Source: Collinsella sp. | GTDB lineage: Bacteria > Actinomycetota > Coriobacteriia > Coriobacteriales > Coriobacteriaceae | Direction of reading: 5' to 3' | DNA length: 64,000 nt | Assembly: GCA_019413925.1 (NCBI GenBank) | Contig: DXMY01000031.1 | Span: 5,427 to 69,426 of the forward strand | Shown here: positions 11,861 through 27,278 of the stretch, piece after piece | Position numbering within the stretch: the stretch's first letter is position 1 | How the letters are laid out: each line of letters starts with the position of its first letter | Notes under the pieces: generated by a model | Databases searched by the model: none | Told to the model about the DNA's origin: nothing | Seen by the model: only the letters and a program-made list of their open reading frames with translations | Translations under genes and position numbers: made by a program

Positions 11861-12733
11861 CTACAGACGCTTGAGAATCACATAGCGGTTGAGCTCGCCG
11901 CTGCGACCGTCGGCGTGGAAACGCTCGAGCTCGCGTACGGGAACCTCGCCGCTCTTGTAGAACGTACGGACGCCGCGCACCAGGTCGGTGATCTGCTGGT
12001 CGTCAAAGTGATGGCAATAGCGGTAGGCGTGGCGGTCGTTTTGCCAGCCAATGAGGTGGTCGCCGGCTTCGAACTGTGCGGAATCGTAACCCTCAAACGG
12101 CGGGGTGAGCTCGGCGCGGGCCTCGGCGCGAACGGCTTTGCGCGCCATGCGCTCGTCGTTCATAAACTCCCAAAAGCTGATGGCGATGATGCCGCCCGGG
12201 CGCGTCTGGCGCACCAGGGCGTCGAGCACGCGTACGCGGTACTCGCACGACGGCACGTGGTGCATAAAACCAAAGCAGACCGAGATGTCGGCGAGCGGGG
12301 CGTCGAAAAGCACGTCGGGTGTCTCGGCGGGGTTGAGCTTCATGAGGGCATCGAGCACGTCGAGTTCCTGGAAGTGCAGGTTGGGAATGCGCAGGGCGTG
12401 ACCGTGCGCATCGATAGCCAAATCCTGACACGAGTCAACACCATAGAACTCAAACGGGCAGCTGGCGTCTGCCGAGGGGTTTGCGCCATCGACGCCCTTG
12501 GCGGCAAGTGCGCCGCCGGCGGCAAAGTTCTCGAATCGCATATTGCCACAGGCAAGATCGAAGACGCGGACGGGATGCTCGATCGTGGCGACGTCGAGCT
12601 GTTCGAGCGCGATATCCATGGTGCGCACCCAGCCGGGCCACGGGGCCTGGCGCGTATCGGAAAAGGAGGCGGAGTGCTCGCGATAGAACGTGTTGTTGAG
12701 CTGGATGAGCGACGAGGCGAAATCGCGGTTCAC
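11861..12733 (-). CDS. Trm9/ALKBH8-like class I SAM methyltransferase
   Basis: FYREHSASFSDTRQAPWPGW matches the Trm9/ALKBH8 signature (V)Y..IA.HFS.TR..PWP. Also DLACGN motif I, YRYCHHFDDQQITDL (compare HRYYHVFREGEL) and C-terminal ELNRYVILKRL (compare GNWCVILQK). GTG at 12733 has GGAGGGAG 9 nt upstream. Alternative ATG at 12781. Confidence 0.7.
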   Translation of the reverse strand: MNRDFASSLIQLNNTFYREHSASFSDTRQAPWPGWVRTMDIALEQLDVATIEHPVRVFDLACGNMRFENFAAGGALAAKGVDGANPSADASCPFEFYGVDSCQDLAIDAHGHALRIPNLHFQELDVLDALMKLNPAETPDVLFDAPLADISVCFGFMHHVPSCEYRVRVLDALVRQTRPGGIIAISFWEFMNDERMARKAVRAEARAELTPPFEGYDSAQFEAGDHLIGWQNDRHAYRYCHHFDDQQITDLVRGVRTFYKSGEVPVRELERFHADGRSGELNRYVILKRL

Positions 12734-13000
12734 GGCGCGGAACTCCCTCCGTTGGCGGTGTGGAATAAACAGTACGACCATACTACCGTTAACGCCGCAA
12801 CGGGGACAACCGAGCTGAGGGTCATTGCTTTGTTTGGACACATTTCCGCAGCTCATATGCACCCGCAACCGACGGTTGTCAAAAATCTCACTAGAATAGG
12901 TGGCATGCTTTTGGCGGTGGCGGATAGATTTTTAACTGTGCAAGGCGCCTTAAGAACAAAAACGGTCCGGCGGCACGGCTGGCATCACATAGGAGGAACC

Positions 13001-13723
13001 ATGAATGTAGAAACTGCGCAGCGGCTCGCCGACCTTCGCCGAAGCAAAGGCTTTAGCCAAGAAGGGCTGGCACGAAAGCTGGGACTGTCGCGCCAAGCAG
13101 TCAGTAAATGGGAGCGCGCGGAGAGCTCGCCCGATACCGAGAACCTGATCTCGCTCGCCAAGCTCTATGGTGTGAGCTTGGACGAGCTGCTCAATCCGAG
13201 CGATGAGATTGAGGACGATATCGAGTTTGAGAACGAGGACCGTGCCCGTCAGCGCGAGGCCGAGGCGGCAGATCGCGCCCGTACCCATGAGGCGGCGGCA
13301 CGTGCAACCGAGGCGGCAACACAGGCGAGTGACGCCGCCGCCAAGGCGGCGCAAGCGGCAAGCTGGAGTGCGCAGGCCGCCAATGCCGCTACGGCGCAGG
13401 CGACGAGTGGCAGCGCAGTTGGCTCGACTCCGGTGAAGGGCCCGTTCCAGTCGTTCCCGTATTGGGCCGTGTGCTGGCTGCTGTTCTTTTTGCTGATGTT
13501 CCTGTTTGGTGCCGGCCCCTTTGCCGCACTGATCTTCTTTACGATTCCCATCTATCACTGGGTGGCGCGTGCGCTCGATGGCGATTGGGCGCGCGGGGAT
13601 ATTCAGGTTGGTTCGGCGTCGGTGGCGGTCAAGGCCCAGGGGAAGGATACTTCTGCGGAATCTGATGCTGACGTGGCTACCGCGACTACCGCTGAGCCGA
13701 TTGCCAAAGAGAGTAATGAATGA
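13001..13723 (+). CDS. XRE-family HTH regulator with Ala-rich linker and C-terminal transmembrane segments
   Basis: AGGAGG at 12991, ATG at 13001. LRRSKGFSQEGLARKLGLSRQAVSKWE HTH. C-terminal FPYWAVCWLLFFLLMFLFGAGPFAALIFFTIPIY. The upstream 362 codons of the 602-aa track ORF are antisense to the Trm9-like gene. Confidence 0.85.
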   Translation: MNVETAQRLADLRRSKGFSQEGLARKLGLSRQAVSKWERAESSPDTENLISLAKLYGVSLDELLNPSDEIEDDIEFENEDRARQREAEAADRARTHEAAARATEAATQASDAAAKAAQAASWSAQAANAATAQATSGSAVGSTPVKGPFQSFPYWAVCWLLFFLLMFLFGAGPFAALIFFTIPIYHWVARALDGDWARGDIQVGSASVAVKAQGKDTSAESDADVATATTAEPIAKESNE

Positions 13724-14619
13724 TGAAGCTTTCGCATGAATCCAAGGTACGCTTGGGCGTTGGCATCGGAGCGTTTGTGCTCATCATCGGGCTTGTCTTT
13801 GGCATTTCGCGGACTTTGATTTATTTTGATGGCCCGTGGGATCTCGACGATGTTGTATCCGGCTTCTCTGGTATGGACGATGCGGTTGACGAGGACGATC
13901 TTTTGGATGGCGGTAACTATTCCGCTCAGCCTCAGCAGCTTTCGAGCGAAACCTTTGATGCCGACGCGTTCACATCGCTTGACTTGGACGTGACGTCGGG
14001 CACGGTCGAGGTCAAACACGTCTCCAGCGGGCCAGTGCGCGTAATTGAAAGCGGTCGCGTGGCAACGGGGACCGTTGCCTTCGATGCGGCAACCCAGAAC
14101 CTGGCCGAAATCAAGGGCTCTACGCTCAAGATTCGCCAGTTCGATTGCGATGACGAGCGCGCCATTGACCGCACGGTTACCGTCGAACTGCCGCGCGAAG
14201 TTGCCGATAACATGGTGGGCATTACAGCGAATGTAGGATCGGGTGACCTGACGGTCGCGGGTATTGCGTGTCATGACCTTAACCTGACTTTGGACTCTGG
14301 AGACGTTGAGTTTACGGGCACCGTGACCGATACCCTGAATGCCGAGGTCGGTTCGGGCGATGTGACGTTCGAGCTCTACCAGGCCCCCGCGAAGTCGATG
14401 GACGTGAGTGTGGGCTCGGGCGATGTGGAGATGACGGTTCCGAACTCGACGGGCTTTAAGGCGAGCCTCACCTTGGGCAGCGGCGACTTTGAGAGCGATT
14501 TCCTTCCGCTTGGCTACGACGGCGAGACCATTTTGAATCTTGAATTCGATAACGGCGATAAGTCTGCTACGTATCGTTTTGAGGTCGGTTCGGGCGACAT
14601 GTCGTTTGATCCGGAGTGA
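13720..14619 (+). CDS. DUF4097-type beta-strand repeat protein with N-terminal membrane anchor
   Basis: ATGA overlap with the XRE gene. Six GSGD[LVFM]/DSGDV repeats about 20 residues apart, typical of DUF4097. Confidence 0.85.
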   Translation: MMKLSHESKVRLGVGIGAFVLIIGLVFGISRTLIYFDGPWDLDDVVSGFSGMDDAVDEDDLLDGGNYSAQPQQLSSETFDADAFTSLDLDVTSGTVEVKHVSSGPVRVIESGRVATGTVAFDAATQNLAEIKGSTLKIRQFDCDDERAIDRTVTVELPREVADNMVGITANVGSGDLTVAGIACHDLNLTLDSGDVEFTGTVTDTLNAEVGSGDVTFELYQAPAKSMDVSVGSGDVEMTVPNSTGFKASLTLGSGDFESDFLPLGYDGETILNLEFDNGDKSATYRFEVGSGDMSFDPE

Positions 14620-14666
14620 CATGCGGTTTTCGGAGATCGGTACATATAGGCATGCTCTTTGATGGA

Positions 14667-14705
14667 GGCGCCGGAGCCGTGACGGGCTTCGGCGCCTTTG
14701 CCTTT
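14667..14705 (+). terminator. Intrinsic terminator after the DUF4097 gene
   Basis: GGCGCCGGAGCC / GGCTTCGGCGCC (11 bp + G.U) followed by TTTGCCTTT. Confidence 0.55.
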
Positions 14706-14716
14706 ACAATGGGGAC

Positions 14717-16624
14717 ATGGAACAGATTATCTTGAACATACTCGAGGCTCTGCGTCGCGGCGAGACCGTGGACGACAAAGCGCTCGTCAAACTGATACAT
14801 GCCGAGGCGCGCCGTGAGGGTGCCGACAAACGCGATTTGGCCAAGCGCCGTCTGCTGCCGTTCTACCAGCGGGTTAAACGTGAGGAGCCGGTTCGGTGGG
14901 CTGCGTGGAATGTCGATTCCGATTTGGAGCGTCAACTGCTGCAGGTCCTGCGTATGAAGCCGCGCCGAACGGCCTCGGGCGTGGCGACCATTACCGTCAT
15001 TACCAAGCCCTGGCCATGCTCGGGCGATTGCCTGTTTTGCCCCAACGATCTGCGCATGCCCAAAAGCTATCTGCACGCCGAGCCGGCGTGCGCCCGTGCG
15101 GAGCAAAACTGCTTCGACCCGTATCTGCAGGTGAGCGCTCGTCTGACCGCGCTTTCGCAGATGGGACATGCGACCGACAAGATAGAGCTCATTGTGCTCG
15201 GCGGTACCTGGAGCGACTATCCGCAAGGGTATCAGACGTGGTTTATGTCGGAGCTTTTCCGTGCGCTCAATGACGATGCCGTCGCCGGTGTGGCGGCAAA
15301 CCCCATGTTGGCGCGTCCGGGCATCAGCCGTGCCGAGGCAGGGCGCCTGCTCGATGACGCTCCCGCCGATGCCCTGCCGCCGGTGGTAACAGAGCGCCGC
15401 GAGCGCTATCGGGCTGCCGGCATTGCGACCGACGAGGCCGAGCTTGCGAGCGGCGTTGCCGACGAGCAGGGGCGTGTGGATGCTGTCGTTGGTGGCTATA
15501 ACCGCGCAGTGCGTCGTCTGTACGGCCCCGGTACGCCATGGGGCGAGGCTGCCGAGTGGCAGACGGCAACGATGGAGGAGCTTGAGCGTCAGCAGCGCAT
15601 CAACGAGACGGCGAAGCATCGCGTGGTGGGGCTCGTTATCGAGACCCGCCCCGATGCCGTGACGCCACAGGCGCTCACGCTCATTCGTCGTCTGGGCTGC
15701 ACCAAGATTCAGATGGGTATCCAGAGTCTCGACCAGCACCTGCTCGATATCAACGAGCGTCGCATTTCGGTGGCTCAGATCGAGCAGGCGTTTTCGCTTG
15801 CGCGCCTCTTTGGCTTTAAGATCCATGCGCATTTTATGCTCAACTTATTGGGCGCCACACCCGAGGGGGACAAGCGCGACTACGAGCGCTTTATGACCGA
15901 AGGGGCCTTTATGCCCGACGAGGTCAAGGTCTACCCGTGCGCGCTCATCGAGGGCTCGCGTCTGGTGGGCTGTTACGAGCGCGGCGAGTGGCGTCCCTAT
16001 ACCGAGGAAGAACTGCTCGATGTGTTAGCCGACGACATCGTGGTGACGCCGCCGTTCTGCCGTATCAGCCGCATGATCCGCGATTTTAGCTCCGATGACA
16101 TCATGGTGGGCAACAAGAAGCCCAACCTGCGCCAGCTCGTTGAGAACCGCCTGGCTGCTCGGGGTGATGGTGCGACGGTGCGTGAGATTCGCTATCGCGA
16201 GATCAGCACGGCGGGTGCCGACTTGGATGAGCTATCTCTTGATGAGGAAGTGGCGTACGAGACGCCGGTGACGCACGAGCGCTTTTTGCAGTGGGTGACG
16301 CCGCAGGGCAAGATCGCGGGCTTTTTGCGTCTGTCTCTGCCCGATCGTGCTTTTGTTGCCGCGCATGCGGATGAGTTGCCGACGACACCGGACGAGGCGA
16401 TGATTCGCGAGGTGCACGTGTATGGCATGGCGGCGCGCGTGGGAGATCAAGGCCAGGCAGCCCAGCACCATGGATTGGGGCGTTTGCTCGTAGAGCGTGC
16501 GTGCGAGATTGCCCGGGATGCGGGTTATACGCGTATCAACGTGATTAGCGCAATCGGTACGCGCGAGTACTATCGCCATTTGGGTTTTTGCGACCATGGA
16601 CTCTATCTGCAAAAGGAGCTCTAG
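14717..16624 (+). CDS. elp3: Elp3-type radical-SAM/GNAT tRNA wobble-uridine modification enzyme
   Basis: CSGDCLFCP CxxxCxxC cluster, central radical-SAM barrel blocks and a C-terminal GNAT block QHHGLGRLLVERACEIARDAGY. 635 aa, the usual Elp3 size. Confidence 0.88.
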   Translation: MEQIILNILEALRRGETVDDKALVKLIHAEARREGADKRDLAKRRLLPFYQRVKREEPVRWAAWNVDSDLERQLLQVLRMKPRRTASGVATITVITKPWPCSGDCLFCPNDLRMPKSYLHAEPACARAEQNCFDPYLQVSARLTALSQMGHATDKIELIVLGGTWSDYPQGYQTWFMSELFRALNDDAVAGVAANPMLARPGISRAEAGRLLDDAPADALPPVVTERRERYRAAGIATDEAELASGVADEQGRVDAVVGGYNRAVRRLYGPGTPWGEAAEWQTATMEELERQQRINETAKHRVVGLVIETRPDAVTPQALTLIRRLGCTKIQMGIQSLDQHLLDINERRISVAQIEQAFSLARLFGFKIHAHFMLNLLGATPEGDKRDYERFMTEGAFMPDEVKVYPCALIEGSRLVGCYERGEWRPYTEEELLDVLADDIVVTPPFCRISRMIRDFSSDDIMVGNKKPNLRQLVENRLAARGDGATVREIRYREISTAGADLDELSLDEEVAYETPVTHERFLQWVTPQGKIAGFLRLSLPDRAFVAAHADELPTTPDEAMIREVHVYGMAARVGDQGQAAQHHGLGRLLVERACEIARDAGYTRINVISAIGTREYYRHLGFCDHGLYLQKEL

Positions 16625-17503
16625 ATGAACAAGCCGAGTGTTTCTGCCGGCGTCGTTGCCGGTGTTGCTCTGGGAGCCGCGGCGCTTGGTGCGGCCGCTG
16701 TCGCTGTTCGTGCTGCCTGTCTGCAGGTTGCGCGAACCCGCAATGGGTTGGCGCGTGTGAAACGCGTGCACGATGAGGGCGGCGACGAGATTCGCGTGTT
16801 GGTGCAAGGCAGCGTCTACCAAAGCGCAAGTTACGTTGGTGAGCGTTGGGCGGAGCCCGTCTTTGCGTACTATCGTGCGTTTGACGACGTGTTTGAGTCC
16901 GAGGATGCGATGCGTGATGCTTATGGTCACGATATCAACCGCATGCTTGTGCTGGGTGGCGGCGGGTTTGCCTATCCCAAGTTCGCGCTGATGTCGCACG
17001 AGGGCTTGCGCATGGACGTCATCGAGTATGACGGAGAGATTACGCGCCTGGCGCGCCGCTGGTTCTATCTGGACGAGCTGGAGTGCACGGCGGGCGATCG
17101 CCTGCGGGTGATAACCGCTGAGGCTCGCTCTTATCTGGGCGTGACGAGTGTTGGTCATCGTCACTACGACGTGGTCGTGAGCGATTGCTTTGGCGGTGCC
17201 GAGCCCGTACGCGAGCTGGCGACGGTTGAGGCGTTGCGTTTGGTGCGGGGCAGCCTAAATGTCGGTGGCGTCTACGTTGCCAATATCGTAAGCACAAACG
17301 AGGGGAGCGATGTGACGTTCCTGCGCGACTGCGCTGCCACGGCACTCGAGGTATTCGCCCATGTCTGGGTGGTCCCCTGTGGCGATGCGGAGTTCGGCGG
17401 CGAGGAGAACTACCTGCTCATCGCCAGCGACGGCGACTATGTCTTTGCCGAAGCCGTGCCCTTCGACGCCGACTTCCTCGGCACCGCCCTTCACGACAAG
17501 TAA
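16625..17503 (+). CDS. Membrane-anchored spermidine-synthase-fold (class I methyltransferase-like) protein
   Basis: ATG immediately follows the elp3 TAG. N-terminal hydrophobic helix. VLGGGGFAYP, DVIEYDGEI and DVVVSDCF blocks resemble spermidine synthase-like proteins. Confidence 0.75.
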   Translation: MNKPSVSAGVVAGVALGAAALGAAAVAVRAACLQVARTRNGLARVKRVHDEGGDEIRVLVQGSVYQSASYVGERWAEPVFAYYRAFDDVFESEDAMRDAYGHDINRMLVLGGGGFAYPKFALMSHEGLRMDVIEYDGEITRLARRWFYLDELECTAGDRLRVITAEARSYLGVTSVGHRHYDVVVSDCFGGAEPVRELATVEALRLVRGSLNVGGVYVANIVSTNEGSDVTFLRDCAATALEVFAHVWVVPCGDAEFGGEENYLLIASDGDYVFAEAVPFDADFLGTALHDK

Positions 17504-17529
17504 GTCTCTCCGTCCCAAAAAGACTGGTC

Positions 17530-19974
17530 TTAGGCGTGGTCGCGCCAGCTGAGGACGCGCTGCTTCATGCCCTCTATGTCGAGCACGCCTTCGGCAAAGC
17601 CCTTGCGCACGAGCTCTTCGGGAACAAACTCGTCGTAGCGGTCAAAGTAAGGCACCTCGCCGGGATAGACGAGCTCGATGGGATTGAAGTCCTTCTCGGC
17701 CTCGGCGGCGAGCACCTCAAAGAACGTCTCCTCGTCGGCCTTCATCTTAAACTGCATAAAGTACGGGCGCGATGGGTCGAGTCCGCGAAGGCCCAGCTCC
17801 GCGGCACACTTAATCTTGAGCATGCGCTCGAGTGCCAAAAAGGCGTAACTGCCCAGCCAGGGGAAGAGTACCCAGGTGTCGCCACCCAGGTTGATGAGTG
17901 GCTTGGTTCCCGCACCCGAAATCTCGGCCGTATGGCGAGCCTGCGCCAAGCGGGCCCGCGCGTTACCCATAAGGTACGGATACGCGGCATGTTCATTGAG
18001 CGCTTTGCGCATGCGTTCGAGCACATGTGTGTTGATGTCGCCGGGGCAGTCGCCAAAGTAGGCCGGCACCCGGCCTTTGACCTGCGTGGCAAAGACGGTG
18101 TGGCGCTTCCAGTCCACTTCCTCGACAATCCAGCAGTGTCCGGCGATGGCGATGCGCTCACCGGGCGGAGGGGGGTTGACGATCGTGCCCAACTCGGCCG
18201 ACTCGCTGCGAACGGTGAACTCCTCGTTTTCCTGGAACACGGCGTAGAACTTAAAGTTGTTGATGATGCGCTCGCCCGCGAGGCCCACGATGAGCCCATC
18301 GCCCTCGGTGACCTGGATGTGGTCGATCTTGATGAGGTGACGCAGCAGCACGCGATAGTCATCGGCCGAGACGCGATGGAAATAGCTGAGCGTGAGCACG
18401 CGCTGGGCAAGTTCCGCCGGCGTGAGCTCTCCGGTGCTGGCGAGGGTCGACATGGTCTGGTGATAGAGCAGACTGTAGGGGAGTCGATCGAGCTCAGGCG
18501 GCTCGACCCACTTTTCCTCGCGATAGAGTTGTACGAGCGCGATGCTCTGGAGGAGTTTCCAAGGTATCGTTTCAGGCATCATCGTGCGCGGCTCGGGCTC
18601 TTCCTCGCGCATGACAAACCACATCTCGGGCGGAAGATCGCGGCGCCCCGTGCGGCCCATTCGCTGCAAAAAGGAGCTGACGGTAAACGGCGCGTCAATC
18701 TGGAAGGCGCGCTCCAGGCGGCCGATATCGATACCGAGCTCCAGCGTAGAGGTGGTGACGGTTGTCTGTGCCTGCTCCTCATCGCGCATGAGCTCTTCTG
18801 CCGTCTCGCGCAGCGATGCTGAAAGATTGCCGTGGTGGATGAGAAAGCGGTCGGGCTCGTGCCGGCTCTCGCAGTAGCTGCGCAGCATGGAGCACACGGC
18901 CTCTGCCTCCTCGCGCGAGTTGGCAAAGACCAGGCACTTGCGGCCGCGTGTGTGCTCAAAGATATAGCCCATGCCGGGGTCGGCGTTGTCTGGCGCCGTG
19001 TCGGTGGGGTTGAGTAATGCCTGTTCGGGTGCTCGGGGGATGTCGACTTCGCCCTCGGGGGCCGACGAAGTGCGGCGATCCCTGGAGGTAGCCTTGTCCC
19101 GTGCCCGCTCACGACGTTGACGGCGCTCCTCTTGTGTGAGCTGTCCGCTGTGACGCATGTCTTGGGCGCCGGCGGGCAGTGCCGCGGGTGCCGCTGCCTC
19201 AATGCGCTCGCACGCAAGCACTTCGGCCTCTTGAGGACCCATGCTCTCGAATCCTCGCTGCTGTGCCTGGGGACCCGAGTTGTAGAAGTGCTCCATGGAG
19301 ATACGCCACACGCGGCGCGGCTCCTCAAAGCGGGGGATGATGCAATCGCGTCCTGTTCCCTGCGAGAGGAAGGCACCCGTACGCTCGGGGTCACCGATGG
19401 TGGCCGAAAGGCCGATGCGGCGGGGCTGCACGCCTGCCATGCGCGAGAGGCGCTCGATAAGGCAGAGCGTCTGACCGCCGCGGTCGCCGCGCATGAGCGA
19501 ATGGACCTCGTCGATGACCACGTAGCGCAGGTCGCAGAACATGCGCGGGATCGCCATGTGCTTATGGATTAAGAGCGCCTCGAGTGACTCGGGCGTAATC
19601 TGCAAGATGCCGCTCGGTTTTTTTATGAGCTTAGCCTTGTGCGACTGCGAGACATCGCCATGCCAGTGCCAGACAGGGATATCGGCCTCTTCGCAGAGGT
19701 CGTTGAGACGGACGAACTGATCATTGATGAGCGCTTTGAGGGGGCCGATGTAGAGGGCGCCTACGCTCGCGGGCGGGTTCTCCCAAAACTCGGTCAGGAT
19801 GGGAAAGAAGGCTGCCTCGGTTTTGCCGGAAGCCGTGGATGCCGTCAGGAGCACATTATCTTGCGTGTTAAAGATGGCGTCTGCCGCTGCAACCTGGATA
19901 GAGCGCAGACTCTCCCAATCGTGGGAGTAGATGAAGTCTTGGATAAACGGAGCATATCGGTCAAAGGCGTTCAC
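17530..19974 (-). CDS. Lhr-like DEVH-box superfamily-2 helicase (SngC-like)
   Basis: TASGKTEAA (I), VIDEVHS (II), SATIG (III), QRMGRTGRR (VI). GTG at 19974 has AGGAGG 4 nt upstream (track start is TTG at 19989). Long C-terminal domain. Confidence 0.85.
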   Translation of the reverse strand: MNAFDRYAPFIQDFIYSHDWESLRSIQVAAADAIFNTQDNVLLTASTASGKTEAAFFPILTEFWENPPASVGALYIGPLKALINDQFVRLNDLCEEADIPVWHWHGDVSQSHKAKLIKKPSGILQITPESLEALLIHKHMAIPRMFCDLRYVVIDEVHSLMRGDRGGQTLCLIERLSRMAGVQPRRIGLSATIGDPERTGAFLSQGTGRDCIIPRFEEPRRVWRISMEHFYNSGPQAQQRGFESMGPQEAEVLACERIEAAAPAALPAGAQDMRHSGQLTQEERRQRRERARDKATSRDRRTSSAPEGEVDIPRAPEQALLNPTDTAPDNADPGMGYIFEHTRGRKCLVFANSREEAEAVCSMLRSYCESRHEPDRFLIHHGNLSASLRETAEELMRDEEQAQTTVTTSTLELGIDIGRLERAFQIDAPFTVSSFLQRMGRTGRRDLPPEMWFVMREEEPEPRTMMPETIPWKLLQSIALVQLYREEKWVEPPELDRLPYSLLYHQTMSTLASTGELTPAELAQRVLTLSYFHRVSADDYRVLLRHLIKIDHIQVTEGDGLIVGLAGERIINNFKFYAVFQENEEFTVRSESAELGTIVNPPPPGERIAIAGHCWIVEEVDWKRHTVFATQVKGRVPAYFGDCPGDINTHVLERMRKALNEHAAYPYLMGNARARLAQARHTAEISGAGTKPLINLGGDTWVLFPWLGSYAFLALERMLKIKCAAELGLRGLDPSRPYFMQFKMKADEETFFEVLAAEAEKDFNPIELVYPGEVPYFDRYDEFVPEELVRKGFAEGVLDIEGMKQRVLSWRDHA

Positions 19975-20055
19975 GGGGCCTCCTCTCAAATACGAATCTC
20001 TTAACGCGGTGAGCAGTGGCTCGCTACATTACTGTCTCGACGTTTGCCCAGATAA

Positions 20056-20092
20056 AACCTGCCAAAATAAACCTGTCCCTTTTTGGCAGGTT
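20056..20092 (-). terminator. Terminator-like hairpin directly after the ATPase gene, upstream of the helicase gene
   Basis: Perfect 12-bp stem AACCTGCCAAAA / TTTTGGCAGGTT overlaps the TAA stop. On the minus strand it is followed by TTTTATCTGG. Confidence 0.5.
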
Positions 20093-21395
20093 AGATGGTG
20101 AACTCGGCGAAGTTGCGGTCTTCGCTTGCGGTGTCGGTGTTGTCCGTTACGGCTGCCGGCGCCAGCGCGTCGCCACCGACGCTTTGCAGCAACTCGGCCA
20201 CGTTAGCATCGGGGTTTTGGCATAGGATGTCGAGCAGCTCGATAAAGTCACGAATGACTTCACGCGGCGTTAAGTGCGTATCGGCTCCCACGCGGCCAAA
20301 CTCAATCTTGAGGAAGTCCACCAAGTCGTTTTCGGTAAGCGAGGGCGTCCAGCCAAAGTAGCCGGCATGGATCTGCATGAGTTTTTCGATCAGCACCAGC
20401 AGTTCCTCATAGGTGAGTGGCTGTAGGCGGATGATGGGCGCGAGCATGTCCTTAAGGTCCTCGCGCGCAAAGCGGCCCTGAGCGAGTCGGCTGCGCAGGG
20501 CTTCGTAGGAGAACACGCCGCGGCGGCGGTCTTCGATGGAGGTTGGCGTGCCGCCCATAATCATGCCCAGGTACTGCGCTTTGCCCTGAAGCGTGTCGTT
20601 GTACATGGTCAGGATTTTCTCGTAGTTGTACTGGCGCGTGATAGCGTTGGGAATCTTATACAGATTCACGAGCTCGTCGATGAGCACCAACATACCCTTG
20701 TAGCCGCCGCAGACCAAAAAACGCGCGATGAGCTTAACGTAGTCGTACCAGTCGTCATCGCTGATGATGGTCGAGGAGCCCAGCTCGGCGCGAGCCTCGC
20801 TCTTGGTACGGTATTCGCCGCGGATCCATTTGGTCACGCGGCTCATGGCTTCCTCGTCGCCCTCGGATACGGCCGTGCGATAGCGGCGAAGCATGCGGGT
20901 GAAGTCGAAGCCGTGGACCATCTCCTCGAGCGGGGCCAGTTGGGCATTGACGACCGACTCGTCGACGTCGGCACACGAGGCAACCCAGCGATCCAGAATA
21001 AGGTTGAGCGCACCGCCCTCGGGGCGCGTCTTGGTCGATATATTGCGTATGAGCTCGCGGTAGGTGGCAAGGCCCTGCCCCTGCCCGCCCTGCAGACGGC
21101 GCTCGGGGGATAAGTCTGCATCGGCGACGACGAATCCCTCGCCCATGGCATGCGTTCGGATGGTTTGGAGCAAAAAGCTCTTGCCGGCGCCGTAGCGACC
21201 GACCAGAAAGCGGAAGCTTGCGCCGCCGTCGGCGATGAGACTCAAATCGGTGAGCAGGGCGCGAATCTCGACCTCGCGTCCCACGGTGATATAGGGAAGG
21301 CCGATGCGCGGGACCACGCCGCCCTTGAGCGAGTTAAGGATAACGGCAGCGACGCGTTTGGGTACACGGGGCGCTGCGGATGCGGTATCACTCAT
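20091..21395 (-). CDS. P-loop ATPase, DUF2791/BrxD-like (SngB-like)
   Basis: Walker A GRYGAGKSF, Walker B MLVLIDELVNL. N-terminal LNSLKGGVVPRIGLPYITVGRE block as in DUF2791/BREX ATP-binding proteins. Confidence 0.8.
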   Translation of the reverse strand: MSDTASAAPRVPKRVAAVILNSLKGGVVPRIGLPYITVGREVEIRALLTDLSLIADGGASFRFLVGRYGAGKSFLLQTIRTHAMGEGFVVADADLSPERRLQGGQGQGLATYRELIRNISTKTRPEGGALNLILDRWVASCADVDESVVNAQLAPLEEMVHGFDFTRMLRRYRTAVSEGDEEAMSRVTKWIRGEYRTKSEARAELGSSTIISDDDWYDYVKLIARFLVCGGYKGMLVLIDELVNLYKIPNAITRQYNYEKILTMYNDTLQGKAQYLGMIMGGTPTSIEDRRRGVFSYEALRSRLAQGRFAREDLKDMLAPIIRLQPLTYEELLVLIEKLMQIHAGYFGWTPSLTENDLVDFLKIEFGRVGADTHLTPREVIRDFIELLDILCQNPDANVAELLQSVGGDALAPAAVTDNTDTASEDRNFAEFTI

Positions 21396-23148
21396 GGTCT
21401 AGGTATCCTCTCACGTCTGCTTCGTAGTCCTCGATAATCTGCGGCCCTGCCGCGCTAAATTCAATTACGGTGTCGCCCACCAGGTCAAAGAGCGCCTCGT
21501 TGATGCTGTCGACGAGCATGTCCTCGCTCTGCCCCGATTGCACTACCGCCGATTCCGCCTGTACTGCGTTGTGCTCGAGCAGCGCGCGGAGATAGGCGTC
21601 TGCGGCAGGCGTGAGTTCGTTCGTGGCGTCAGCGGGCGCAACAGCTGCGAACGCGGGCGTCGGCGCGAGAAGCGGTGCCACGACACCAAACTGTTCGGTG
21701 GATATGGTTGGCTCGTCGGTCTCGTCCTGCCGAATGGGTGCCGCGACCGCCTCGACAATCGCGTCGGCTACGGGCTCGGCTTCCGGTTGCCCTGAGTCCG
21801 CTGCCTCGGCTTCCACAGGTGCGCTGTCCTCGCGCTCTTCGTCGATTAAAAGTGCTTCGCGCGTTTGCGCAGCGGCGCTCCGAATGTGCCCCAGCTGAGT
21901 CAGGTCGATATCGATCTTGACGGGCTGGTGTGCGGCGTCCCACGAAAGCCATGCCACAATCTCGTCATCGATAATCTTGGCCAGATATTTGGGGACCTTT
22001 TCTTCCTTAAGGGGATGGGCGGGGTCCAGCGCCAGGCGCAGGCGTTGGTCGCAGGCGCGCATCATTTCACCGAGCTTGCTGCTCTTTTGCCTACTACCAT
22101 GGATACGCATACATTCCCAAAAGCCGTTTTGGCAACGGTAGATATGGATGGGATCCAGGCGGTATTCGCAGTTCTCGTGGCGCTCGGGCGCAAAGAATAC
22201 GGCCGAGGCAAACATGGTGTAGGGCATGGCCGTCTCCTCCCCAAACAAGCTCGCTACGATGCCGGTCTTTCGATGCGTGTCATAGTAGCGCGCCATGCGG
22301 ACATACGCGGCGCATGCCACGTGGCGCAGATCGCGGTGGTGGCTGCGGTCGAGCCGCGAGTTACTTAGGTTGTACGTGGAGAGGGCGTTGATGGCGGCCA
22401 TGAGTCGCTCCTCGCGCACCTCATCGGGCGGAAGGGGGAGCGTGGGCTCGGAGGTTTTGCGACGTTTGGGGGTCTGGTCGGACGGTGCCGGTGCTGGTAC
22501 AAGGTCTCGTGCCGCGCGCCGCAGCTCGATAAGGGCGTTATCGAACATGACGGTTTTAGAGTCGCGGAGCAGCTTGGGGTCGAGCCCATGGAATACGGCG
22601 TAATCCTGCAACCACACGCGTGCAAACCGATCAATGCCGGGCTCGAAGGCGCGATAGACATCCCAAAAGGCCTTGATCTTGTTAAAACCGTCGAGCGGGT
22701 CATCTACGCCAATGCCGCAAATCAGCTCATAGAGATACAGAAAGGCAAAGGACGTAGACGTTTCCTCGACGGTTCCGCGGCGCACTTGGGCACGCCAGGT
22801 AAAGTAGCCGCGCAGCTGCCGGTCGCTCATGGCGTTGTAGGTGGGAAAGTACGACTTAAAGGTGCCGTTGTAGGGACAGTCGTCCTCAAAGTCGGCCATC
22901 AGCAGGCCCTGGCGGTAAAAAAGCTCGGCTTCCGAAAGCCAGCGGCCCGCACCGCCCTTGGGGTCATCCTGCCAGCGCGATATCTCGCGCATTTTACGGT
23001 ACTGGTCGGGGAGGAAATTCTGCATCTGTCGGCCGGTTTTGAGAATCGGCTCGTCTGCGTAGATTTCGTTTGAGAAGCGGGTGGACTGATGGGTCCGGGC
23101 CTCGGCCATAATGCGCTCGATGAGCATCTTGATGTCCTGGTCGGCCAC
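21388..23148 (-). CDS. TerB-N plus TerB-C domain protein (SngA-like)
   Basis: N-terminal FPTYNAMSDRQLRGYFTWRAQVRRG / FAFLYLYELI blocks (TerB-N-like). C-terminal EDMLVDSINEALFDLVGDTVIEF (TerB-C-like). 8-nt overlap with the ATPase gene. GTG start after GGAGAGGAG. Confidence 0.72.
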   Translation of the reverse strand: MADQDIKMLIERIMAEARTHQSTRFSNEIYADEPILKTGRQMQNFLPDQYRKMREISRWQDDPKGGAGRWLSEAELFYRQGLLMADFEDDCPYNGTFKSYFPTYNAMSDRQLRGYFTWRAQVRRGTVEETSTSFAFLYLYELICGIGVDDPLDGFNKIKAFWDVYRAFEPGIDRFARVWLQDYAVFHGLDPKLLRDSKTVMFDNALIELRRAARDLVPAPAPSDQTPKRRKTSEPTLPLPPDEVREERLMAAINALSTYNLSNSRLDRSHHRDLRHVACAAYVRMARYYDTHRKTGIVASLFGEETAMPYTMFASAVFFAPERHENCEYRLDPIHIYRCQNGFWECMRIHGSRQKSSKLGEMMRACDQRLRLALDPAHPLKEEKVPKYLAKIIDDEIVAWLSWDAAHQPVKIDIDLTQLGHIRSAAAQTREALLIDEEREDSAPVEAEAADSGQPEAEPVADAIVEAVAAPIRQDETDEPTISTEQFGVVAPLLAPTPAFAAVAPADATNELTPAADAYLRALLEHNAVQAESAVVQSGQSEDMLVDSINEALFDLVGDTVIEFSAAGPQIIEDYEADVRGYLDHE

Positions 23149-23236
23149 CGCTTCTCCTCTCCTAACGCAGCTACGGTGACCTCATATCATAGCACAGCAT
23201 CAAACAGATGTTCGAGATACCGCTGCGTTGATAGAT

Positions 23237-23953
23237 TTAGAACAGGAGGGCGTAGATGACGGCGATGACGACGGAGGGGAGCATATTGGCCGTGCGGAAG
23301 GTCTGAGGACGGATGAGGTTGACGCCGACGCAGAAGATGAGCATGGAGCCTACGAGCGAAAGGCTGTCGAGGGCTGCCGTGGTCATGATGGGGGAGAGCG
23401 CGCCGGCAAACAACGTGATCGTCCCCTGGAACACGGCGACGGGCAGGGCGGAGAAAATGCAGCCGCGGCCAAGCGACGCCGTCATGGTGCAGACGATGAT
23501 GCAGTCCAATGCGCCTTTCAAGGCAAGCGTTGACCAGTCACCGAGCAGACCGTCCTGGATCGATCCCACGATAGCCATGGCACCGATGCAGACGGTCAGC
23601 GATGTCGAGACAAAAGCGTTGGTGAACTCGTTATCGCCCTCACTGCCAGTCTTGCGCTTGAGCCATTCGCCAAGGTTCTCGATGGCGGCCTCCAAGTTGA
23701 TGGCCTCGCCGATGAGCGAACCGAGCGCAAATGAGACGATGAGCATGGTGGTACCGGTGGTCGCTAGCGCCTTTCCATCGATGATGAGCATCTTTTGCAT
23801 GGTGCCGCCCAGGCCGATAAACAGGACGCACAGCCCCGATGCTTTCATGAGCGTGTCTTGGATGCGCGGTGTAATGAAGCGGCCGCCCGCTAATCCCAAA
23901 AGACCGCCCGCAACTAAAAGCACAACGTTGATGATTGTTCCCAAGCCCGGCAT
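23237..23953 (-). CDS. DUF554 family membrane protein
   Basis: MPGLGTIINVVLLVAGGLLGL... start is typical of YdfK/YqgA-like DUF554 proteins. Polytopic. Confidence 0.85.
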   Translation of the reverse strand: MPGLGTIINVVLLVAGGLLGLAGGRFITPRIQDTLMKASGLCVLFIGLGGTMQKMLIIDGKALATTGTTMLIVSFALGSLIGEAINLEAAIENLGEWLKRKTGSEGDNEFTNAFVSTSLTVCIGAMAIVGSIQDGLLGDWSTLALKGALDCIIVCTMTASLGRGCIFSALPVAVFQGTITLFAGALSPIMTTAALDSLSLVGSMLIFCVGVNLIRPQTFRTANMLPSVVIAVIYALLF

Positions 23954-24071
23954 GAGCCCTCCTGTATTGATGCCAACGTGGCAATCGTAGCAGAACGAAA
24001 TGCGAGGCACATCGCGACTCATCTAATACGTTATATAAGTGGTGTTAGGAATGATGCGCAGCATTTAAGCC

Positions 24072-25502
24072 TCAGGTGGTTGTCGGGACATAGGGATAGT
24101 ATTCAAAGCGCAGTGTCATAAGCCGCTGCGGGAATTCAATAGCCGCGGCGATGATATTGGCATCGCGGGCACGATCAAACCCTTCGAGTTCGATCTGATA
24201 CGAGACGTCTTGCATAATGTCCAGACGCCGCCAGGCTAGGAGTGTGTCGCCATCGAATTCCAAGGTCTTGCCTCCATCTGGAGCAACGGCGTATAGACGC
24301 AGCTTGGCGGTGGTTGCAGGGTCGACAACCGTGACCTTTTTAATTTCGTTTCGAGTATTCTTGGCGCCCAACAAGGTGAGCAGTGTTGGGGCCACGACCT
24401 CGCCCGATGGCAAAAAGACGACTTCGATGGATTCGGGAAATGCGATGATGGCCGACTTGCGGACGGGTTGATTGGCGGCGGCAACTTCGATGTTCGCAGC
24501 GTCGATGACCTCTGTGTGGTCGAGCGCGGCAAGCACGCAGCAGTTACCTTCATCGATCTCTTGAGGATCAGCAAGCCCCAGACTGTCCGCGAGTTCGGAA
24601 TCGTTTGGATCGGTAGCGGGTTCATTCGGTGCTTCGAGAGAAGCTGGGACGCTGTTTGTCGGCGACGGCGTGTCGCCCGCACCTGCTTCTTTGTCCGCGC
24701 TCTCTTCTTGTATGGTTGCGTTGATGGGTTCGTCGTTTGGGGGGAGCGTCTTGGCGTCAAACGCGGAGGGGAGAATTCCGATAGCTCCGGATCCGTTCCA
24801 CTCCATTTCGAGAAGCGCCGGGTCGGCAAGAATGCGTTGCCTGCTTTGCGCGTGGGAATCGATTTCAAAAGGACCTGCCTCTATCCCTCGTGTAAGGCTG
24901 AGTGATCCGGCTGGCTTCTCGAAATGAGCGTCTGTGTCTTTGGTACTGACGGCGTAGAACAGCAGGGACGCTTCTCCCGCCGCGATGGCATCGGTGCCGG
25001 CTTTGGTCAGCCGCAATGATGCCGTGAATGAGAGGGTGGGCTGCGCATCGTCTGCATTCGCGGCGGCGCAGCCCAGACATATACCGCCTCCTTTCTCAAA
25101 AAACGTACCGTCGAAGGCGACCTTCGCTCCGTTCGCCGAGTCATCGACCGAAGCGATGTCGATGCGCAGCTCTAAATTGCATGGATCGCCATCTGCATCG
25201 AGCACGGCCGAGCGCCACGTGCAGACGGCGCACCCCGCCCGGGAGCCGTTTGCCTTGTTCGAACGATCGATATCCACGACTATCGAGCCGTCCGTATTAC
25301 GACGAAGACATCCCGAGGTCGAGATTGCGGCCTGTGCGATCGAAAAACGCTTGCACGCAATGGCGCTCGATGGATTTGGTGCGGAACTTAGGGCTGCTGG
25401 TAAGGAGTCTGCCATGACGGGAGCCGCCCAAGCGGCGACAGACGTTCCGGTTGCGAGCGCGCCGCAGAGTGCGACGACGGGCAAAAGGTTCTTCGATGCC
25501 AT
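24072..25502 (-). CDS. Secreted Cys-containing protein of unknown function
   Basis: AAGGAG 5 nt before the ATG. Signal peptide MASKNLLPVVALCGALATGTSVAAWA. Acidic/Pro-rich central linker. No C-terminal anchor. Confidence 0.75.
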   Translation of the reverse strand: MASKNLLPVVALCGALATGTSVAAWAAPVMADSLPAALSSAPNPSSAIACKRFSIAQAAISTSGCLRRNTDGSIVVDIDRSNKANGSRAGCAVCTWRSAVLDADGDPCNLELRIDIASVDDSANGAKVAFDGTFFEKGGGICLGCAAANADDAQPTLSFTASLRLTKAGTDAIAAGEASLLFYAVSTKDTDAHFEKPAGSLSLTRGIEAGPFEIDSHAQSRQRILADPALLEMEWNGSGAIGILPSAFDAKTLPPNDEPINATIQEESADKEAGAGDTPSPTNSVPASLEAPNEPATDPNDSELADSLGLADPQEIDEGNCCVLAALDHTEVIDAANIEVAAANQPVRKSAIIAFPESIEVVFLPSGEVVAPTLLTLLGAKNTRNEIKKVTVVDPATTAKLRLYAVAPDGGKTLEFDGDTLLAWRRLDIMQDVSYQIELEGFDRARDANIIAAAIEFPQRLMTLRFEYYPYVPTTT

Positions 25503-25520
25503 GGGGTCTCCTTAGCTAAT

Positions 25521-25802
25521 TTAGTGCGGCCTGTCCGTGTTTTGTTTCTGGCTGCGTTTGATGTGCAGACCGAGGCCGGCGGTTCCCGCGCCTGCTGCTG
25601 TGGCGCCTGCTGCCAAGAGCCATCGTCTGTCGCCTGTCTGCGCCAACGGTTCCTCGCGGTCGCCGCGGTCGAGCTCCGAGAGGTCGACCGTCACTTGCGT
25701 GGCGGCCTGCGCCTGTTCTTGCTGGGCAAAGGCCATGGCTGGCCCAAACGCTAGGATGCTGACGGCGGCGGCCAGGGCGACGGCCTTATGCCGTGTGCGC
25801 AC
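25521..25802 (-). CDS. Very small LAXTG (sortase-E type) cell-wall-anchored protein
   Basis: GTG at 25802 gives MRTRHKAVALAAAVSILAFGPAMAFA signal peptide. About 30 mature residues, then LAQTG + hydrophobic stretch + KRSQKQ tail. The track ORF starts at TTG 25832. Confidence 0.62.
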   Translation of the reverse strand: MRTRHKAVALAAAVSILAFGPAMAFAQQEQAQAATQVTVDLSELDRGDREEPLAQTGDRRWLLAAGATAAGAGTAGLGLHIKRSQKQNTDRPH

Positions 25803-26385
25803 CGGGCTCGACCGTCCAGGTGATCGTTGCAACCTGATCGCCTTCGCCGGTTACGCGGAAGATGTCGCGCGTGACGCGGGCGACGTTTCCGCTTGTCTTG
25901 AGCTTAATTTTGTCCGTGCCGCCGGCAATGCCCTGGTAGCCCATGTCGAAGGCTGCGTTCTTGGAAAGATCGAGGCCCGTCTCCTGCATTGCGGCGCTGG
26001 CGTTTTGGAGTGCGCCGTCGGGGCCGACCTTAAAGTCGATGGAGTTTTGTGCGGTTCCGGCCTTGGCGTCGGCGGCAATGGTCCAGGTGTTCATGGCGTC
26101 GATCTTCATGTTGGTGACATGGATGCCGTAGGCCGAATGATTGTCGATGGTGGTCGCGTCTTCTGAGGGGCCCTGAAGCGTGCCGTCGGCCTTGGCGACG
26201 AAGGGAATAACCGTCGGAACTTTGAACTCAACGTTGTCGATCTCGGTCCTGACCATTACTTTCGTGGTTCCAACGCGCCCGGCTGCCATAGCTGGCGTCG
26301 GGGCGGCGCCCATTGCGAGCGCGAGCGCGAGCCCTGCGCCCACGACGAGCGCTCTGGCTCCGTTCATGTTCCTGGTGATGTCCAT
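25786..26385 (-). CDS. Secreted protein, possible WxL-like surface domain
   Basis: AAGGA ribosome-binding site. Signal peptide ...GAAPTPAMAAG. W-x-[IV] motifs NTWTIAAD and C-terminal ATITWTVEPG resemble the two WxL motifs. Confidence 0.75.
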   Translation of the reverse strand: MDITRNMNGARALVVGAGLALALAMGAAPTPAMAAGRVGTTKVMVRTEIDNVEFKVPTVIPFVAKADGTLQGPSEDATTIDNHSAYGIHVTNMKIDAMNTWTIAADAKAGTAQNSIDFKVGPDGALQNASAAMQETGLDLSKNAAFDMGYQGIAGGTDKIKLKTSGNVARVTRDIFRVTGEGDQVATITWTVEPGAHTA

Positions 26386-26475
26386 GGTCGTTCCTTTCTA
26401 TTCGCCGCGGGCCGTCCCCGCGATGATTGGACGAATGCTGGTGAATTGCGTGCGGTGTCGCGTCGACCGGAAAAG

Positions 26476-26985
26476 CTAGTTCTCGGTTTGCTCAACCCGC
26501 ACCTTGACACGTGTCGGATTGCCGTGGCTGTCGAGGGTCTTGGCATCGAGTGCCTGGATCTCGATGTACGCCTCGCCTTCTTTGATGTCGCCGGCGGGGC
26601 ACGTCTCGATTGTCTTGCCGGTCTCGACCACACCGGATTCGTACATGGTCTCGTCGTTTTGGATGACGCGGAATCGCTGGGGAAATTTATTGTCTTGGAC
26701 GTTTTGCACGTTGACGCGCAGCTTGCCGTCCTCCTGCAGCTGAGCGACCGGTGCGACCGAAATCGTCATCATGTTGTCGCGGACTATGGCGTCGAGCTCA
26801 TCTTGGATTTCCTGACGCGTTTTGCCCTCGGCCGTCGTAATCGAAGCGCCCGCCTCGGGTACGGGCTGCGACTGCCAAGCGTATAGTCCTACGGCGACAA
26901 GGGCACAGACGATGGCCAAGCAGGCAACGATGAGCTTCTTGCGACGACCCAGGCCTGCAAAGTGGGGTGGCTTCTTCGCGCTCAT
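26476..26985 (-). CDS. N-terminally membrane-anchored extracytoplasmic protein (hypothetical)
   Basis: ATG at 26985 (MSAKKPPHFAGLGRRKKLIVACLAIVCALVAVGLYAW). High GC3. The longer 372-aa track ORF is an unsupported N-terminal extension. Confidence 0.7.
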   Translation of the reverse strand: MSAKKPPHFAGLGRRKKLIVACLAIVCALVAVGLYAWQSQPVPEAGASITTAEGKTRQEIQDELDAIVRDNMMTISVAPVAQLQEDGKLRVNVQNVQDNKFPQRFRVIQNDETMYESGVVETGKTIETCPAGDIKEGEAYIEIQALDAKTLDSHGNPTRVKVRVEQTEN

Positions 26986-27278
26986 GCGGCATCCTTGGCG
27001 GTATAGATGCGCGCAAAGGTGGACGGGTTCGCTCCAAAGAGCATGTGAAGCATCAGGCGGCGTGAGTAGACAAGCTCGTCGAAGTCGGGAGGGAGCTCGA
27101 TGTCGTGGATATGCGCGATGCGGTGGGCGAGCGCCGAGAACGACTCGGGGTCGCAGATCACATCGGTGGTAACGTGGTAGACCGTCGTATCGGGGAATGC
27201 CTCTTCGTCGAAAGGCAGGAGATGGGGATCGTCGTCGACTTCGATGGCGATGCCGTACTGGGGCCAGTAATATGCCAT
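26982..27278 (-). CDS. Small DUF559/Vsr-like (restriction-endonuclease-fold) remnant-type protein
   Basis: YYWPQYGIAIEVDDDPH ... VYHVTTDVICDPE resembles DF.WP...l.vEvDG..H ... vlRft..dv..dP of DUF559. ATGA overlap with the next gene. High GC3. Confidence 0.5.
   Translation of the reverse strand: MAYYWPQYGIAIEVDDDPHLLPFDEEAFPDTTVYHVTTDVICDPESFSALAHRIAHIHDIELPPDFDELVYSRRLMLHMLFGANPSTFARIYTAKDAA

Follow-up and report, generated by a model that had tools for sequence, protein, structure and literature searches.

The window analysed here is a stretch of 64,000 nucleotides from Collinsella sp. (assembly GCA_019413925.1, contig DXMY01000031.1, positions 5,427 to 69,426 of the forward strand), and its minus strand carries, at positions 17530-23148, three co-directional genes, sngA, sngB and sngC, that almost certainly make up a cassette of the Shango family of defence systems. 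A scan for open reading frames (ORFs), with translations, showed that the three genes are adjacent and in the same orientation within one locus, that sngA and sngB share positions 21388-21395, an overlap of 8 nt, and that a gap of 116 nt separates sngB from sngC. The longest ORF that includes sngC, 17530..19989, encodes 819 aa when counted from its first TTG. The most likely start, as read from the DNA, is the GTG at 19974, because a Shine-Dalgarno sequence, GAGAGGAGG, lies 4 nt upstream of it and because gene callers place the start at the same codon on identical metagenomic contigs. An overlap of 8 or 4 nt between sngA and sngB recurs in Coriobacteriaceae and on a Clostridium plasmid, and this recurrence suggests that translation of the two genes may be coupled.

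We scanned the three proteins with the Pfam profiles, the PADLOC models of defence proteins and the NCBIfam models. The best PADLOC model of each protein was the matching Sng model, aligned over nearly its full length. SngA matched its model with an E-value of 1.2e-76 (257 bits; aa 29-581 against positions 53-525 of 528), SngB with 1.1e-169 (563 bits), and SngC with 3.3e-275 (913 bits; aa 7-810 against positions 4-715 of 720). The PADLOC model of BrxD scored 132 bits with SngB (E = 9.8e-39) and that of BrxHI 408 bits with SngC (aa 343-809, E = 1.5e-122). The NCBIfam model of BrxD likewise gave 132 bits, where the cut-off is 350, and the Lhr-type models TIGR04121 (194 bits, cut-off 850) and PRK13767 (165 bits, cut-off 849) matched SngC in the helicase lobes only; no NCBIfam equivalog cut-off was reached by the cassette proteins. 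Because the Sng scores lie far above the BrxD and BrxHI scores, the assignment to Shango holds; the SngA, SngB and SngC profiles, the gene order A-B-C, adjacency and intact motifs were all found.

An earlier note on this DNA, the original prediction, had proposed a Shango-type cassette of three co-directional minus-strand genes with an 8-nt sngA/sngB overlap and an 814-aa helicase. The ORF scan found both the layout and the overlap, the helicase length is right given the start at 19974, and the motifs that the note quoted are present in the translations of all three proteins. Gene content, order and best PADLOC models bear out the Shango identity, and the profile searches that it proposed (TerB_N, TerB_C, DUF2791, DEAD/Helicase_C and the PADLOC models) all returned matches. 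The likeness to BrxD, BrxHI and Lhr that it noticed is also real, as significant profile and PDB sequence matches attest.

Table 1. Coordinates in the window of the Shango genes, the sequence elements around them and the flanking genes.
Feature	Position	Strand	Remarks
DUF554 membrane protein gene	23237-23953	-	flank upstream of sngA
DUF554-sngA intergenic region	23149..23236	-	88 nt; read from sequence
Extended -10-like element TGCTATGAT	23194-23186	-	conserved, upstream of sngA
sngA Shine-Dalgarno AGGAGAGGAG	23163-23154	-	strong; read from sequence
sngA	21388..23148	-	586 aa, GTG start
sngB	20091..21395	-	434 aa, ATG start
Hairpin and T-tract AACCTGCCAAAA...TTTTGGCAGGTT TTTAT	20052..20092	-	directly after sngB stop codon
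sngC	17530..19974	-	814 aa, GTG start at 19974
Elp3-like radical-SAM/GNAT gene, then 292-aa spermidine-synthase-like gene	14717-17503	+	convergent with sngC

To examine the position of the cassette, we scanned a set of genomes, one for each GTDB species, with the Elp3-like protein encoded beside it and compared the window proteins with the resulting loci by tblastn. The scan yielded 80 loci, nearly all labelled Collinsella or Coriobacteriaceae, in which Elp3 is 97-99% identical. The sngC gene directly follows the 292-aa gene in 74 of the 76 informative loci of the Collinsella aerofaciens complex, to which the window belongs, or in 75 when a locus with a 2-kb insert (L058) is counted, and all three sng genes are full length in 63 of the 64 loci that offer enough sequence. 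The sole candidate for absence is L078, a contig of a metagenome-assembled genome (MAG) with low coverage (3.6x), in which positions 7929-7936 join window position 16868 to 26062. As the original prediction had stated, the DUF554 gene lies on one side of the cassette and the Elp3-like radical-SAM/GNAT gene with the 292-aa gene on the other. Its description of the cassette as an inserted accessory module must be abandoned, given a site shared by 75 of 76 loci, synonymous divergence like that of the flanks, no anomaly in GC content and deep synteny; the variable presence between the DUF554 and elp3-operon genes that it had envisaged gave way to a cassette fixed there in 75 of the 76 informative species representatives. 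It had also named conservation in fixed synteny across the whole order as grounds for a core function, and this was largely borne out in the lineages sampled: the cassette is fixed in the C. aerofaciens complex, retains its DUF554 neighbour in Enorma and other distant Coriobacteriaceae, and is present in Atopobiaceae.

Selection was assessed from the median ratio of nonsynonymous to synonymous divergence (dN/dS) and the synonymous divergence (dS) relative to the window sequence. Median dN/dS was 0.036 for sngC, 0.044 for sngB and 0.13 for sngA, with dS of 0.21-0.32 in the sng genes; the corresponding flank values were 0.052 and 0.26 for Elp3 and 0.024 and 0.29 for an 893-aa helicase. ORFs were intact in 69 of 70, 66 of 66 and 63 of 63 extractions of the three sng genes. 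Purifying selection acts on the locus as strongly as on its housekeeping neighbours. The GC content of the cassette (0.58-0.63) matches that of its surroundings, without any compositional anomaly. No tRNA, integrase or transposase gene was found near the cassette in the window, and PADLOC detected no other recognisable defence system in its flanks. The accessory, island or mobile location that is typical of Shango, without defining it, was thus not what we found here.

Several irregularities were seen at the borders of the cassette. The spacer at window positions 17497-17510 is a recurrent insertion site: a 2-kb insert that has a GC content of 48% and encodes a 399-aa multi-pass membrane protein occupies it in L018 (positions 12785-14797), L061, L058, L065 and L038, in L058 between the 292-aa gene and sngC. 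An insert of 73 nt stands in the spacer between the 292-aa gene and sngC in L021 and L079, and in L059 the upstream flank of the cassette is replaced. The L078 junction would correspond to a 9.2-kb deletion of most of the 292-aa gene, Shango, the DUF554 gene and a 476-aa gene, and an independent assembly, L013, ends at window position 16870, the same base as the L078 break. The junction may reflect genuine variation among strains, or the join may be chimeric.

More distant genomes were located by a SngA search with a profile of distant representatives, which can recover only carriers of SngA. An exhaustive search of representatives at 50% identity returned 2503 SngA-family clusters at E <=1e-3, and the whole C. 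aerofaciens complex is a single one of them. Among the distant loci, the order FAD-oxidase/ETF - DUF554 - SngABC recurs with FAD-oxidase 63-77% and DUF554 64-87% identical to the window proteins, and the identities there are 76-88% for SngC, 70-88% for SngB and 45-66% for SngA. Another Collinsella species has an identical gene order (Elp3 84%, FAD-oxidase 77%, DUF554 87%, SngC 88%, SngB 88%, SngA 66%). The Enorma massiliensis cluster and E. phocaeensis retain FAD-oxidase/ETF - DUF554 - SngA - SngB - SngC, with FAD-oxidase 65-66%, SngC 77%, SngB 70-71% and SngA 45-52% identical. In Enorma the DUF554-SngA junction is kept at an identity of just 59-66% in the flanking metabolic genes. Two further lineages share the upstream FAD-oxidase/ETF - DUF554 context. 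In the C. tanakaei cluster and a relative, sngAB stands beside rplJ/rplL, and sngC either follows after three intervening genes or is not adjacent. In the Atopobiaceae Olsenella profusa and Thermophilibacter provencensis the order is HtpG, a homologue of the 292-aa gene of the window (46-47% identical), YaaA and SngABC.

Across genera, SngB and SngC diverge in step with their metabolic neighbours or more slowly. Because this divergence tracks that of the neighbours and because synteny is kept across genera, the comparison indicates that the cassette has been inherited vertically since at least the common ancestor of Collinsella and Enorma, and probably for longer. The locus is ancestral in Coriobacteriaceae; in Collinsella and Enorma it is very probably a vertically inherited core locus, and it probably behaves as a core cluster across Coriobacteriales as well. 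A 2025 preprint on the HRGM2 catalogue has independently described Shango as exceptional among defence systems in belonging to the core genomes of gut Actinobacteriota (bioRxiv 10.1101/2024.12.11.627901).

Elsewhere the family is mobile. Homologues of SngB were found on 695 plasmids, 542 of them predicted to be conjugative, and the copies on enterobacterial plasmids share 41% identity with SngB. The nearest plasmid SngB (59% identity) is encoded by the Clostridium estertheticum megaplasmid pCF002-344, beside a relaxase gene and IS110, the former lying upstream and the latter downstream of Shango. On this plasmid (L089, positions 10551-13097), a gene for an 848-aa protein annotated as 'ATP-binding cassette domain-containing protein' directly follows sngC in the same orientation, and the protein may be a fourth Shango component in the pCF002-344 variant. 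Relatives of SngB were not found in phage records or in IMG/VR.

SngA matched the Pfam families TerB_N (E = 5.9e-32; 111.5 bits, gathering score 25) and TerB_C (E = 4.5e-17; 63.1 bits, gathering score 26.3), and it contains the motifs RQLRGYFTWR (aa 110-119) and MLVDSINEALFDLVGD (aa 543-558). The central TerB domain (PF05099), by which TerB of Ter operons is recognised, was not among its Pfam hits in a scan at E up to 0.01. No transmembrane segment was found in SngA, SngB or SngC, and SngA, with a maximum KD19 of 1.53, is predicted to be a soluble protein. A search of PDB sequences with SngA gave no match.

An AlphaFold2 model of SngA, built from an alignment of 105 Coriobacteriia homologue sequences, reached a mean confidence score (pLDDT) of 83.3, with the folded parts mostly above 90. 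In the model, an all-alpha N-domain (aa ~40-216) holds the invariant PTY...LRGYFTWR...YELxxGxG motifs and is followed by an alpha/beta domain in the centre (aa 243-435), an acidic linker of ~80 residues that is rich in Ala and Pro and disordered (aa 436-513), and a C-terminal module (aa 514-586) consisting of three helices, a beta hairpin and a helix (H-H-H-beta-beta-H). A Foldseek search with the model found no PDB structure or BFVD viral structure at E <=1e-3, and no structural relatives of the N-terminal and central domains were detected. The best local matches were to winged-helix DNA-binding domains of the ModE/LysR type (probability 0.8-0.93 over ~70 columns). Secondary-structure topology assigns these weak matches to the C-terminal module, and this suggests that the module, as modelled, is winged-helix-like. 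Within the C. aerofaciens complex, variation in SngA is concentrated in predicted disordered segments at aa 201-280 and 441-540.

SngB belongs to the Pfam family BrxC_BrxD (PF10923, DUF2791; E = 1e-148). Its Walker A motif GRYGAGKS begins at aa 66, with the lysine at K72, and its Walker B motif LVLIDE at aa 236, with D240 and E241; both are invariant among the relatives compared, and the protein is 59-89% identical across Coriobacteriia and the Clostridium plasmid. The PDB sequence search with SngB yielded no usable match. Its one hit, 7rdr, was disregarded because it covers just 29 residues of a designed repeat protein, and a single-sequence structure model with a pLDDT of 37.7 was unusable and was left aside.

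SngC matched DEAD (E = 1.8e-26) and Helicase_C (E = 4.9e-18) in Pfam, and the superfamily 2 (SF2) motifs I, II, III and VI are intact, with ASTASGKT found at residue 45, DEVH at 155, SAT at 190 and QRMGRTGR at 437. A variable, low-complexity insert separates the two RecA lobes at aa ~230-330, and the variation within the C. aerofaciens complex is concentrated in predicted disordered residues at aa 241-320. The solved structures nearest to SngC are those of Lhr (5v9x, 7lhl) and MrfA/YprA (6znp), with E-values of 5e-25 to 6e-23 over the helicase core only. The C-terminal 376 aa had no PDB sequence match, and the C-terminal 360 aa are homologous to the C-terminal region of BrxHI. A published helicase phylogeny places SngC with BrxHI, DruE and DpdJ. 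BrxHI consists of an SF2 core, a winged helix-turn-helix, a beta-barrel and an Lhr-like C-terminal domain, and BrxD, a stand-alone ATPase of the ORC/Cdc6 AAA+ type that is tightly paired with it, has been proposed to load or activate it (PMC12839542).

The 88-nt region between the DUF554 gene and sngA, judged by its letters and their conservation, probably serves as promoter and ribosome-binding site for the cassette. Conservation is at least 95% across 63 related loci in the block that holds the extended -10-like element TGCTATGAT; a generic two-hexamer sigma-70 promoter scan called no site upstream of sngA. The hairpin between sngB and sngC has a 12-bp stem that was predicted in both the minimum-free-energy and the centroid fold, and it is highly conserved in 70 related loci. 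With its T-tract it resembles an intrinsic terminator or attenuator between sngAB and sngC. Changes in the stem among the 70 loci are mostly single-sided (G-U or mismatch) and show no clear covariation, and we do not claim a structured regulatory RNA at this site, which is conserved but lacks convincing compensatory changes.

The sngB-sngC junction differs among other lineages of Coriobacteriia. At the C. tanakaei-type locus L095 it holds three extra genes, including those for an Fe-hydrogenase and an ABC ATPase; four genes are inserted between sngB and sngC in L092, one opposite-strand gene in the Thermophilibacter locus L098, and in L090 PurL directly follows sngB with no adjacent sngC. In loci L090/L091, L092, L095 and L098 sngA and sngB are never separated. 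Because the hairpin is conserved and the junction gains extra genes in other lineages, transcription of sngC may be partly uncoupled from that of sngAB.

Shango was described by Millman et al. in 2022 (bioRxiv 10.1101/2022.05.11.491447) and by Johnson et al. in 2023 (PMC10250203), and in Pseudomonas aeruginosa it lowers plating efficiency 10-100-fold and protects strongly in liquid culture (PMC10250203). Like the systems of P. aeruginosa PA14 (PA14_RS11735-45) and Escherichia coli, the Collinsella cassette encodes a TerB-like protein, an ATPase and a DEAD/DEAH helicase in the same order, with no nuclease or toxin gene. Its host, in contrast, is a Gram-positive anaerobe with a GC content of ~60%, its SngC has an extra disordered insert of ~60-100 aa between the RecA lobes, and a terminator-like hairpin stands between its sngB and sngC, unlike in the validated systems. 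Those systems reside in variable defence hotspots or islands (in P. aeruginosa cDHS1, Shango and BREX jointly account for ~12% of systems; PMC10250203), whereas the Collinsella locus is fixed in the core chromosome and syntenic across genera.

Type 2 BREX offers a homologous and tightly linked pair, BrxD-BrxHI, of a PF10923 ATPase and a helicase that is similar to SngC in its C-terminal region as well (PMC12839542). Unlike in that system, PglX, PglZ, PglW and BrxC are missing here, including the linkage of PglX, PglZ and BrxC to BrxD/BrxHI that characterises it, and a TerB_N/TerB_C protein is the partner instead. The SF2 DExH core of SngC is nearest by sequence to Lhr-core and MrfA/YprA, but the similarity is confined to the RecA lobes and no full-length equivalog match places SngC among the Lhr/ligase-associated DExH helicases; moreover, a TerB-N/C protein and a DUF2791 ATPase accompany SngC but are not known as linked partners of Lhr and MrfA. 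The C-terminal domains of BrxHI-type helicases have been reported to be Lhr C-terminal domain-like (PMC12839542). Bunzi (BnzA) and Dionysus (DinB) also contain a Ter-family domain protein, for which a role in sensing has been proposed. In these systems the partners of TerB are membrane or pore-forming effectors, and the proteins carry transmembrane helices, whereas SngA is paired with DNA motor proteins and lacks a transmembrane segment.

One could envision the following scheme, which we put forward tentatively. SngA would be a soluble sensor or adaptor whose TerB_N and central domains detect a trigger, either a phage-encoded protein or an aberrant structure formed by DNA or during replication, and its tethered winged-helix-like C-terminal module would contact DNA or dock on the motor proteins. 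SngB, made in a fixed ratio with SngA through translational coupling, would act as an AAA+ ATPase of the ORC/Cdc6 type that loads or activates SngC, as proposed for BrxD with BrxHI. SngC, an Lhr/BrxHI-like translocase that presumably moves 3'-to-5', would unwind or strip invading or replicating DNA and thereby block phage replication. Since the cassette encodes no nuclease, toxin or membrane effector, we would expect direct, non-abortive interference, possibly with substrates passed on to host nucleases. The lack of a nuclease or toxin fits the protection reported for PA14 Shango, which has a non-abortive appearance (PMC10250203). An anti-phage role in this host appears somewhat probable, and a chromosomal Shango locus, for which such a mechanism is proposed with lower confidence, is, taken as a whole, the explanation that we favour with moderate confidence.

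Several points weigh against this explanation. Phage resistance has been shown only for the P. aeruginosa PA14 and E. coli homologues (PMC10250203; bioRxiv 10.1101/2022.05.11.491447). In the literature searched we found no paper that resolves the mechanism of Shango, which the original prediction had also called unknown, and a 2025 preprint still describes the role of TerB proteins as unclear. The literature proposes membrane surveillance for TerB proteins, which our scheme does not use. The winged-helix matches of SngA had E-values of ~0.75, and the SngA residues aligned in them were not reported. A fixed, slowly evolving locus outside defence islands is atypical of defence, and because the locus has these properties there is room for a cellular role other than defence. 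Regarding its history, sampling through SngA cannot reveal Coriobacteriales genomes that lack SngA, and SngC is about as similar to the Clostridium plasmid copy (64-67%) as to the Atopobiaceae copies (67%). Since SngC identity alone cannot prove vertical descent, we argue for descent at the level of the order from synteny.

One alternative, which we consider rather unlikely, is that in Coriobacteriales the cassette is a housekeeping or stress module that acts mainly in cellular DNA transactions, for example by repairing damaged or stalled replication intermediates or R-loops, and that any anti-phage effect is secondary. It would correspond to the Ter-linked DNA-processing complex that Anantharaman, Iyer and Aravind reportedly predicted in 2012. 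Such a role would suit the near-universal fixed site, the dN/dS of 0.036-0.044 in SngB and SngC, the stronger conservation of these two proteins between genera than of the adjacent FAD-oxidase/ETF genes, and flanks that hold neither mobile-element genes nor other PADLOC hits in the window. Lhr and MrfA, whose structures are the nearest solved ones to the SngC core, are repair helicases. The Atopobiaceae locus lies beside HtpG and YaaA, the latter of a peroxide-stress protein family, but these stress-gene neighbours may be mere ancestral synteny. The variation of SngA within the species complex is confined to disordered linkers, with no arms-race signature in the folded domains; between genera, however, SngA diverges much faster (45-66% identity) than SngB and SngC, as expected of a sensor that faces changing targets. 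Furthermore, the same family protects P. aeruginosa and E. coli from phage (PMC10250203; bioRxiv 10.1101/2022.05.11.491447), and residence on 695 plasmids (542 conjugative) and in a P. aeruginosa defence hotspot is typical of defence or competition cargo. A related proposal, which we regard as doubtful, is that Shango was domesticated in Coriobacteriales into a constitutive, order-wide chromosomal module of DNA surveillance or repair, made up of a tethered adaptor (with its winged-helix-like domain), a loader of the ORC/Cdc6 kind and an Lhr-like helicase, for which the cell's own aberrant DNA or replication intermediates would be the primary substrate and phage defence a derived or parallel function.

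The two remaining alternatives were rejected. That the cassette is a recently inserted, horizontally acquired defence island, variably present among strains, is highly improbable. Shango is mobile elsewhere, on plasmids and beside the relaxase and IS110 of C. estertheticum pCF002-344; the L078 MAG contig joins 16868 to 26062 without the cassette and L013 breaks at 16870; and both borders are insertion or recombination points in a few genomes (the 2-kb insert at 17497/17510 in 5 loci and the L059 flank). These facts are outweighed by the near-fixed site (75 of 76 informative species representatives), GC content and dS like those of the flanks, and the deep synteny seen in a DUF554-SngA junction kept at 59-66% identity of core metabolic genes, to which are added the lack of an integrase, transposase or tRNA in the window neighbourhood and of relatives in phage records or IMG/VR. 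It is extremely improbable that the cassette is a remnant or satellite of type 2 BREX (Pgl), with SngB and SngC left over as BrxD and BrxHI after the loss of PglX, PglZ, PglW and BrxC. The matches to the BrxD and BrxHI models are significant and the Pfam family of the ATPase is named BrxC_BrxD, but the Sng models outscore the Brx models (563 bits versus 132 for SngB, 913 versus 408 for SngC), the NCBIfam BrxD score of 132 bits is under the cut-off of 350, and the partner gene, as in Shango, encodes a TerB_N/TerB_C protein. Moreover, every ORF of at least 450 aa in the 64-kb window belonged to another family or had no Pfam match, with no PglX-, PglZ- or PglW-like ORF and no BrxC among them.

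The comparison of related genomes also revealed variation elsewhere in the window. Five co-directional minus-strand genes (98, 169, 199, 93 and 476 aa) at positions 24072-27278, between the FAD-oxidase/ETF operon and the DUF554 gene, are missing from Enorma and other distant relatives and match no Pfam or PADLOC family except for weak N-terminal DUF4148/Wzz-like hits; the 476-aa protein is 56-100% identical among species of the C. aerofaciens complex whose neighbouring proteins are 95-100% identical. On the plus strand, at 13001-14619, a gene for an XRE-type helix-turn-helix protein is followed by one for a DUF4097 'toastrack' protein, which is unusually variable (71-100% identity) among genomes with Elp3 97-99% identical. 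At 10806-10903, between the genes for the 893-aa Suv3-like helicase and a 279-aa methyltransferase, an indel of ~210 nt distinguishes related genomes from one another, and about ten assemblies end within it, ~180-200 nt past the methyltransferase gene, which suggests that the longer allele may hold a small repeated element. Finally, a 1110-aa ORF at 55106-58438 (plus strand), directly upstream of a RelA/SpoT gene, encodes a RecJ-type DHH/DHHA1/OB protein fused to DEAD/Helicase_C.

Taken alone, the locus represents an ordinary case of the known Shango family, and it adds a Gram-positive gut example to a validated anti-phage system. What is unusual for a defence system is its fixed position, deep synteny, dN/dS of ~0.04 and lack of an island context; the occurrence of Shango in core genomes was already noted in one sentence of the HRGM2 preprint (bioRxiv 10.1101/2024.12.11.627901) and is documented in detail here. 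The related loci provide a large set of natural sng sequence variants that can be used to map constrained surfaces, and the SngA model suggests a testable architecture of two conserved folded domains and a tethered winged-helix-like module. If Shango has indeed been domesticated in these bacteria, it would be a rare defence-type system that evolves like a housekeeping gene, and Collinsella and Enorma would offer a natural system in which to find what Shango senses.

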